Shown piece by piece: positions 1 to 220 of a DNA stretch of 377 bases. Where the stretch lies: NCBI RefSeq assembly GCF_003334815.1, contig NZ_QOWO01000132.1; one strand, written 5' to 3'. The translations under genes were made by a program, and so were the position numbers. Positions within the stretch are counted from its first letter, which is position 1; the number at the start of each line of letters is the position of its first letter. The notes beneath the pieces were generated by a model that was not told where the DNA came from, ran no database searches, and saw only the letters and a list, made by a program, of their open reading frames with translations. The stretch comes from Escherichia coli. GTDB lineage: Bacteria > Pseudomonadota > Gammaproteobacteria > Enterobacterales > Enterobacteriaceae.

Positions 1-1
1 T

Positions 2-77
2 TGGTGGGTCGTGCAGGATTCGAACCTGCGACCAATTGATTAAAAGTCAACTGCTCTACCAACTGAGCTAACGACCC
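2..77 (-). tRNA. lysZ: tRNA-Lys, anticodon UUU, complete 76-nt gene with encoded 3' CCA
   Basis: Reverse complement of 2-77 reads GGGTCGTTAGCTCAGTTGGTAGAGCAGTTGACTTTTAATCAATTGGTCGCAGGTTCGAATCCTGCACGACCCACCA. This folds as a cloverleaf: acceptor stem GGGTCGT/ACGACCC, D-arm GCTC/GAGC, anticodon stem GTTGA/TCAAT with loop CTTTTAA (anticodon TTT is plus 42-44 aaa), T-arm GCAGG/CCTGC with TTCGAAT loop, then discriminator A and CCA. It matches the E. coli tRNA-Lys(UUU) sequence as I recall it. The lysZ label rests only on the recalled 146-nt lysY-lysZ spacing and is tentative. Confidence 0.95.
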
Positions 78-111
78 ATACGGGTGTTACCTGAAAGATT
101 TTTACTCGGGG

Positions 112-128
112 CCAATCTTTAAGATTGG
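112..128 (-). other. Hairpin (7-bp stem, 3-nt loop) overlapping the CCA end of the partial tRNA-Lys copy
   Basis: Plus 112-118 ccaatct pairs with plus 122-128 agattgg; loop is 119-121 tta. In the minus-strand transcript CCAAUCU-UAA-AGAUUGG, the first CCA is the CCA of the tRNA 3' fragment. Confidence 0.45.
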
Positions 129-143
129 TGGGTCGTGCAGGAT
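125..143 (-). repeat. Partial copy of the tRNA-Lys 3' end (18 nt of the gene including CCA, plus 1 flanking nt) embedded in the spacer
   Basis: Plus 125-143 ttggtgggtcgtgcaggat is identical to plus 1-19. Positions 126-143 are the reverse complement of ATCCTGCACGACCCACCA, the last 18 nt of tRNA-Lys. Identity ends at 144 (g versus t in the real gene). It matches the Lys 3' end, not the Val 3' end (tggtgggtgatgacggg). Confidence 0.85.
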
Positions 144-157
144 GACTCGCTTCGCTC

Positions 158-184
158 GCCCTACGGGCCGTTGCTGGCGCAACG
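158..184 (-). other. Two adjacent short GC-rich hairpins in the middle of the spacer
   Basis: Plus 169-174 cgttgc pairs with 179-184 gcaacg (6 bp, loop 175-178 tggc). Plus 158-161 gccc pairs with 165-168 gggc (4 bp, loop 162-164 tac). Both are perfect inverted repeats read directly from the sequence. Confidence 0.4.
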
Positions 185-197
185 TTATCCTTCACGC

Positions 198-220
198 TTA
201 ACATCTGAGTTTGATGTTAA
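198..220 (-). other. Hairpin (8-bp stem, 7-nt loop) starting 3 nt downstream of the lysY-position tRNA 3' CCA
   Basis: Plus 198-205 ttaacatc is the exact reverse complement of plus 213-220 gatgttaa; loop is 206-212 tgagttt. In the minus-strand transcript this is UUAACAUC-AAACUCA-GAUGUUAA. The stem is AU-rich (6 AU, 2 GC), so only moderately stable. No U-tract follows it. Confidence 0.5.

Follow-up and report, generated by a model that had tools for sequence, protein, structure and literature searches.

Descriptions of the tRNA-linked repeats (TLRs) of Escherichia coli go back to 1978 (Egan & Landy 1978; Rudd 1999, as cited in PMC8144298). In strain K-12 the family comprises 22 copies at ten loci, with one to five copies per locus, and its hallmark is a 3' end of 18-19 bp that is identical to the upstream gene (PMC8144298). 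TLRs have no known function; the sole reported phenotype, an early stringent-response claim for rtT, was retracted (PMC8144298). In Rfam the family is represented by RtT RNA (RF00391), a model which is centred on tyrT-type elements and whose consensus ends in AUCCuuCcCccaCCACCA, the 3' end of tRNA-Tyr. The same ending is found in the four K-12 copies of the tyrT and tyrV loci. The tyrT copies (locus L003, positions 911-1695) are long forms arranged in tandem arrays, overlap a small ORF (tpr) and end in the 3' end of tRNA-Tyr rather than tRNA-Lys. The tyrT-linked element overlaps tpr as an annotated gene of 29 aa (locus L003, positions 1288-1377). A discrete 171-nt RNA is annotated at the tyrT locus, whereas none is annotated in the Lys spacers described below.

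Other described members are linked to 5S rRNA genes: rrA, rrB and rrF are TLRs between the terminators T1 and T2 of rrnA, rrnB and rrnD (PMC8144298). Their RNAs bind Hfq and CsrA in vitro, and the 19 tRNA-linked members scored below 0.01 in a CsrA-binding predictor (PMC8144298). For the 5S-linked members, the repeat was proposed to be an RNase E determinant, and the 3' end of the RNA maps 3 nt past the repeat (PMC8144298). The lysT operon, in which the DNA analysed here is located, forms one polycistronic transcript, so that its lysY-lysZ spacer is transcribed as well; RNase P takes the precursor apart starting at its 3' side, and some cuts in the spacers are made by RNase E (PMC4176162). Repeats are not mentioned in that processing study.

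The window, i.e., the whole 377-nt stretch under study, is E. coli valZ-lysY-lysZ (K-12 coordinates 781068-781444), and it was matched by megablast in all 5426 complete E. coli genomes. According to ARAGORN, Rfam and the K-12 annotation, it contains three tRNA genes on the minus strand: tRNA-Val(UAC) valZ at 303-377, the first base of which is cut by the window, tRNA-Lys(UUU) lysY at 224-299 and the downstream tRNA-Lys(UUU) lysZ at 2-77. A mechanically called ORF of 54 aa (40-204, minus strand) extends across the spacer into lysZ; nothing was found to indicate that it encodes a protein.

Within the lysY-lysZ spacer, window 125-143 (TTGGTGGGTCGTGCAGGAT) is identical to window 1-19. Positions 126-143 (minus strand; ATCCTGCACGACCCACCA in transcript sense) are an exact copy of the 3'-terminal 18 nt of both tRNA-Lys genes (2-19 and 224-241), with lysY as the host gene whose 3' end is copied. 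The fragment consists of the last 2 nt of the T loop, the 3' strand of the T stem, the 3' strand of the acceptor stem and ACCA. In transcript sense, it lies 80 nt past lysY and 48 nt ahead of lysZ, and these distances, given already in a first-pass annotation of the window, agree with the placement by ARAGORN. That annotation had also described the repeat as a copy of the tRNA-Lys 3' end plus one flanking base. The copy itself is real, with 18/18 nt identical; the flanking base 125 is shared with the downstream gene only (window 1), since the upstream copy has C at 223. The longest substring common to spacer and tRNA measured 18 nt as compared with a maximum of 12 in 2000 shuffles of the spacer, and the match is far beyond chance.

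The fragment is very probably best explained as the 3'-terminal module of a short-form TLR (Rfam RtT), a structured 71-nt element at window 126-196 that starts 27 nt after lysY. An Rfam scan of the window returned RtT RNA at 126-292 with 54.4 bits (gathering score 45; E = 4.6e-10), although this alignment places the 5' half of RF00391 on the tRNA-Lys gene by means of a 44-nt insertion, and true homology is confined to model positions of about 60-130. The match terminates exactly at the fragment. Across the K-12 operon, five RtT matches were found, one behind each tRNA-Lys gene, all ending in ATCCTGCACGACCCACCA; the copy after lysQ already carries the PGAP annotation "RtT sRNA". The window element has what marks a TLR: a stable-RNA gene directly upstream, a tail matching in 18/18 nt, a score above the gathering score, and a conserved core with a closing helix.

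Compared with the TLR/RtT family of K-12 as a whole, the element has in common the place directly behind a tRNA gene in a tRNA operon, the core AACGUUGC...GCAACGGCCCGNAGGGCGAG and the 18-nt host-identical tail, and it differs in nothing essential. With the 178-bp repeats of tyrT/tyrV and the rttR (rtT) RNA it shares the core, the closing helix and a host-matched tail, which in their case is AAUCCUUCCCCCACCACCA, the tRNA-Tyr 3' end. It is, however, a short form in which P2 and P3, the helices of the 5' half of the tyrT-type RtT, are missing, and tyrT copies reach 133-137 bits in RF00391 compared with 54 for the window element. The suspicion of the first-pass annotation that the repeat is a known property of the operon was therefore right: the fragment is a re-discovery of the hallmark of a family which has been described since 1978 and is deposited in Rfam.

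All parts of the element are read from the minus strand. Closest to lysY, a left spacer part (197-223) directly follows the gene and can form an 8-bp hairpin from UUAACAUC and GAUGUUAA (198-220). The element begins with the 5' strand of a closing helix P1, CGUGAAGGAU (187-196), followed by the conserved TLR/RtT core (144-186) that is contained in the RF00391 match. The core is composed of three hairpins, namely P4 (AACGUUGC-GCCA-GCAACG; 169-186), P5 (GCCC-GUA-GGGC, generally with a GNA loop; 158-168) and P6 (GAG-C-GAA-G-CGAGUC with flanking G/A motifs; 144-157). It is nearly invariant in 24 short-form copies, with the helices 99-100% paired. The fragment AUCCUGCACGACCCACCA at 126-143 is the 3' module, and the right spacer part (78-125), the 48 nt ahead of lysZ, is homologous to the whole lysY-lysZ spacer of strain EC32. 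An additional 8-bp hairpin, CCAAUCUU-A-AAGAUUGG (112-128), starts with the CCA of the fragment. Its counterpart in a TLR-less allele is a weaker hairpin, CCAAU/AUUGG, in which the homologous flank is joined to the CCA of the lysY gene (locus L124, positions 1350-1368).

Comparison of sequences showed that P1, a predicted helix, closes the element by joining the first 10 nt of the fragment to a 5' strand that changes with the host tRNA. In the window, the 3' strand of P1 is AUCCUGCACG (134-143), which forms nine of ten pairs, with A.G as the single mismatch; at this position U.G is present in the lysW copy, whose helix is fully paired (10/10). In alignment A1 (24 short-form copies), 94.7% of cells were paired, as opposed to 28-50% when the 3' partners were slid by 1-3 columns, and none of 500 shuffles reached the observed pairing. 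Five pairs had changed on both sides, and P1 pair 18-81 occurred as GC in 12 copies, UA in nine and AU in three. In alignment A2 (33 long-form copies), 91.2% of cells were paired and 18 pairs had changed on both sides. P1 pair 19-128 varied there according to the host (AU13/GC9/CG6/GU4), P3 pair 53-70 occurred as CG12/GC11/UA8, and all six pairs of P6 covaried. These explicit pair counts were used in place of a contiguous-helix score for cognate versus non-cognate fragments, which was non-discriminating, the purine-rich 5' strands forming G.U pairs with any pyrimidine-rich fragment.

The covariation in P1 is partly non-independent, in that the sequence of the 3' strand follows from the tRNA and the 5' strand of P1 looks like the 5' strand of the T stem. 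Because of this resemblance, a duplicated T arm could yield the complementarity of P1 without any selection. The pairs which extend P1 into the acceptor bases (CGU/ACG in Lys, GGG/CCC in Tyr and CUG/CAG in Arg-CCG) are not explained by descent from a T arm. Only this extension and the changes within Arg argue for more than such descent. Single-sequence folds were not decisive: in the isolated spacer GAAGGAU pairs with downstream AUCUUUC and not with the fragment, whereas a partition-function fold of all 377 nt gives P1 pair probabilities of about 0.5-0.6 and also swaps strands of the identical tRNAs.

Alignment A2 gives good support to a model of local hairpins, i.e., P2, P3 (GNNA/GNA loop), P5 and P6 (GNA loop), with flanking G/A motifs at P3 and P6. 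Its columns 72 and 91 co-switch between A..G and G..A, as for a sheared pair. The interior long-range helices read from the Rfam RtT consensus line showed no covariation in the 33 sequences of A2, and pair 49-96 is broken in 15 of them.

Between the 5' strand of P1 and the core, long forms insert P3 and a hairpin that ends in a copy of the 5' strand of the host T stem plus TTCGA; the core is placed exactly between TTCGA and ATCC of the copied T arm. A long form linked to Arg(ACG) in Yersinia thracica (L114) and Y. nurmii (L115) contains GAACCGAGCGGTCGGAAGTTCGA, a near-exact 24-nt copy of the anticodon-stem 3' strand, the variable loop and the T-stem 5' strand of tRNA-Arg. This copy suggests that the long forms originated when part of a tRNA was duplicated and the T loop received the core. 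In the window, ARAGORN detected no additional tRNA; only the 18-nt tail and the T-stem-like 5' strand are found there. A partial tRNA duplication is thus a plausible origin of the element.

The core pattern AACGRCCCGNAGGGYGAR, which avoids the tRNA fragment, was scanned for in one genome per species (GTDB; 100,044 species genomes). At least 120 loci were obtained; many of those listed are chance matches in high-GC actinobacteria, and their taxonomic range is a sample and not a census. At least 69 core copies follow, at a distance of less than 400 nt, a tRNA gene that ARAGORN predicts on the same strand. Among the matches listed, core copies occur in Enterobacterales, in Marinobacterium and in one proteobacterial MAG, with Lys(UUU), Tyr(GUA), Arg(ACG), Arg(CCG), Pro(CGG) and Pro(UGG) as host tRNAs. 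Nearly all of the at least 69 copies carry, 11-26 nt past the core, an exact copy of 17-22 nt of the host tRNA 3' end, as computed against the tRNA of the same locus. The tails begin at (A)ATCC of the T loop and often extend 1-4 nt beyond CCA.

Variants of the tRNA that are specific to a lineage recur in the fragment. The Arg(ACG) tail reads CCTCCCGGATGCACCA in Enterobacter, CCTCCTGGATGCACCA in Serratia and Pseudescherichia and CTTCCTGGGTGCACCA in Yersinia, and a Tyr variant with G is found in Enterobacter sp. BIGb0383; each is mirrored in the respective fragment. As these variants are matched within each locus, the fragment evolves in concert with the host gene. In Marinobacterium, outside the Enterobacterales, TLR-like elements follow tRNA-Arg(CCG); the host-matched tail extends over 21 nt in M. 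lacunae (L111) and over 11 nt, then diverging, in M. lutimaris (L026).

Further hosts are found in K-12 itself. In serV-argVYZQ (locus L129, positions 1200-2060, minus strand), short-form TLRs with an Arg(ACG) tail follow argV, argZ and argQ, in spacers of 198 nt; these copies score below the Rfam gathering score. The argY spacer is without a TLR, measures 62 nt and matches the post-fragment part of the occupied arg spacers. The proK gene is followed by a long-form copy, and just past this RtT lies a match to Rfam naRNA4 (nucleoid-associated noncoding RNA 4, CssrE; locus L130, positions 376-455; 69 bits, gathering score 59.5). In the T1-T2 spacer of rrnB (locus L132, positions 255-330), the P4-P5-P6 core GAACGTTGCGAAGCAACGGCCCGGAGGGTGGCGGGCAGGACGCCCGCC is the same as in the Lys spacer and is followed by AACTGCCAGGCATCAAAT, in which 18 nt from the 3' end of 5S rRNA plus trailer are repeated. 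This T1-T2 segment is the one that is present in many expression vectors. The elements rrA, rrB and rrF thus share the core and the 18-nt tail of the upstream gene with the window element; they differ in that the host is 5S rRNA and in that a P1-type 5' strand was not seen in the rrnB copy. The 5S-tailed copy in rrnB indicates that host matching is a property of the family as a whole and does not depend on the T loop.

Within E. coli, the five TLR sites of the lysT operon proved to be variable. Strain EC32 possesses the same seven tRNA genes as K-12, but all five sites are precisely empty. Its post-Lys spacers measure 35, 51, 48 and 33 nt compared with 135, 149, 146 and 132 nt in K-12, an element is likewise missing after lysQ, and no Rfam match to RtT was obtained in the EC32 operon. 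In EC32 each tRNA-Lys gene is joined directly to what in K-12 lies behind the 18-nt fragment. The 48-nt spacer between lysY and lysZ is a case in point, the left spacer part (197-223) being deleted along with the core. Strains O157:H7 EC4115 and CUWW06 retain the lysY-lysZ copy only; EC4115 has six tRNA genes instead of seven, one tRNA-Lys unit being lost. When EC32, EC4115 and CUWW06 are compared with K-12, each of the five sites is independently either occupied or precisely empty.

The element-specific 80 nt of the lysY-lysZ copy, which also match the lysW copy, are present in 4126 of 5426 genomes, the lysT/lysZ type of element sequence in 3585 and the long form after lysQ in 3243. About 24% of the genomes are thus without the lysY-lysZ element type, and about 24-40% are without a given type; since the former lack it, the element is dispensable and any function must be non-essential. 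A BLAST search for the empty junction gave a count of 1307 genomes with an identity of at least 99%, in line with the 1300 lacking the element, although hits were pieces joined across the insertion and are not cleanly interpretable. After lysQ, K-12 contains a 54-nt direct repeat (locus L002, positions 3636-3689 and 3792-3845) composed of the 18-nt tail and the whole Rho-independent terminator. This repeat flanks the long-form TLR there, and K-12 accordingly has two identical tandem terminators whereas EC32 has one.

In Citrobacter werkmanii, the lysT-valT spacer is 91% identical to that of K-12, element included, and the other spacers are empty. This orthologous spacer implies that the elements are old and that empty sites are most simply explained by precise deletions between the tRNA 3' end and the 18-nt copy. 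The fragment and the tRNA 3' end form a perfect direct repeat flanking a presence/absence polymorphism, and loss of the element leaves an intact tRNA gene. The fragment is, in this sense, one arm of a scarless deletion device. The covariation of P1 with the host tRNA and the site-by-site occupied and empty alleles may go beyond the published descriptions consulted. Comparison of the homologous spacers had been suggested as a check in the first-pass annotation; the five operon spacers share the block, nearly all of the copies listed are host-matched, and copies vary from site to site in E. coli.

On the basis of these observations, a mechanism can be envisaged in which the copy of the 3' end, together with the 1-4 nt of trailer that often follow it, would provide the spacer RNA with the 3'-processing determinant of the tRNA. 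RNase E might then cut just past the CCA, with subsequent exonucleolytic trimming of the spacer RNA, and the element would be excised as a discrete RNA with a tRNA-like end. The identity of tail and tRNA could be upheld by recombination or gene conversion with the adjacent gene. A broader proposal is that TLR/RtT elements, instead of being passive junctions, are host-fitted structured RNAs, consisting of the core and a helix made from the host 3' end and a co-varying partner strand, which are kept by selection despite an easy route to scarless deletion, or else self-propagating hitch-hikers at the 3' ends of stable RNAs. We regard this broader proposal as speculative and its probability as low.

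An unlikely alternative to the TLR identification is that the fragment is a mere junction left by an old unequal recombination or partial duplication of tandem tRNA genes, and that the spacer element is a functionless by-product. An ancient duplication junction had also been considered in the first-pass annotation. It is compatible with the dispensability of the element and its polymorphism at every E. coli site, and with the lack of a known function in the literature, where the only reported phenotype was retracted (PMC8144298). What it leaves unexplained is that the block is more than a junction: it forms the 3' module of an element with a conserved structure. Throughout the Enterobacterales the core hardly varies, it is also present in Marinobacterium, and P3 and P6 contain many compensatory changes, as seen at pair 53-70 and in the six covarying P6 pairs. 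Moreover, the lysT-valT copy has been retained as an ortholog in Escherichia and Citrobacter despite an 18-nt repeat through which it should be easily deleted. Invariance and covariation, taken together with this orthology, point to purifying selection.

Much less probable is the view that the core spreads by itself among stable-RNA genes, with the 18-nt copy being a target-site duplication or a recombination handle and the element a hitch-hiker. Such spreading could account for the same core behind seven different host genes among the matches listed and for 13 or more copies in K-12, for occupied and empty sites that are precisely bounded with direct repeats on both sides, and for the exact position of the long-form core between TTCGA and ATCC of the copied T arm. 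However, no transposase or integrase is associated with the element, and the direct repeat varies from 18-22 nt up to 54 nt (terminator included), unlike a fixed target duplication. Simple insertion cannot generate the host-matched 5' strand, and orthologous copies across genera indicate mainly vertical descent. An insertion element specific for T loops was considered separately. The 5S-linked copies weaken this idea, as they combine the same core with a 5S tail although a T loop is missing there; they also speak against self-propagation in general.

A further suggestion of the first-pass annotation was that the fragment pairs with the 5' acceptor strand of the downstream tRNA-Lys and that the competing stem modulates processing; in terms of sequence, ACGACCC of the fragment would join GGGUCGU of lysZ (or of lysY). 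This is extremely improbable as an explanation of the fragment. It is thermodynamically possible in silico: the partition-function fold of the 377-nt precursor assigned a probability of about 0.2 to the pairing of the fragment with the lysZ 5' end, and forcing the alternative costs 0.9 kcal/mol (-71.2 versus -72.1). Yet folding cannot separate identical repeats, and the same run that gives P1 at 0.5-0.6 predicts swaps between the lysY 5' and lysZ 3' strands at 0.6. Comparative support was not found; the 5' half of the fragment is held in the covarying P1, strains without the TLR keep the same tRNA genes and flanks, and the study of operon processing describes ordered RNase P cleavage with no mention of the repeats (PMC4176162).

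Att cores of T-loop-targeting integrases extend from the T loop to the tRNA 3' end. The fragment resembles the duplications made by tyrosine integrases in being a direct repeat of a tRNA 3' end that starts in the T loop, but an attL/attR-type scar of a tRNA-targeting integrative element, the remnant proposed in the first-pass annotation, has practically no probability left: only 80 nt lie between the repeats, as that annotation had correctly stated in denying an integrated element; the ORFs there are unsupported mechanical calls, neither an integrase nor a remnant of an integrase-carrying element is present, and the interval is a conserved structured RNA. The reading fails because the homologous operon spacers share the same block, which closes the spacer behind every tRNA-Lys gene, and the same architecture with a shared non-coding core recurs at Tyr, Arg(ACG), Arg(CCG), Pro(CGG), Pro(UGG) and 5S genes instead of one specific tRNA gene per element family.

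Recognition of the fragment as the tail of a short-form TLR removes a false lead, and short copies of tRNA 3' ends in tRNA and rRNA operon spacers of enterobacteria need to be checked against TLR/RtT before an integrase is invoked. TLRs have been known as a class since 1978 without an assigned function, and the host-matched helix together with the presence/absence alleles of thousands of E. coli genomes offers cheap handles on whether tRNA processing or fitness depends on it. If it is true that the elements are kept by selection, the occupied and empty alleles at the five sites of the lysT operon would be natural knock-outs for a function such as buffering or ordering the action of RNase E, RNase P or exonucleases on tRNA precursors.
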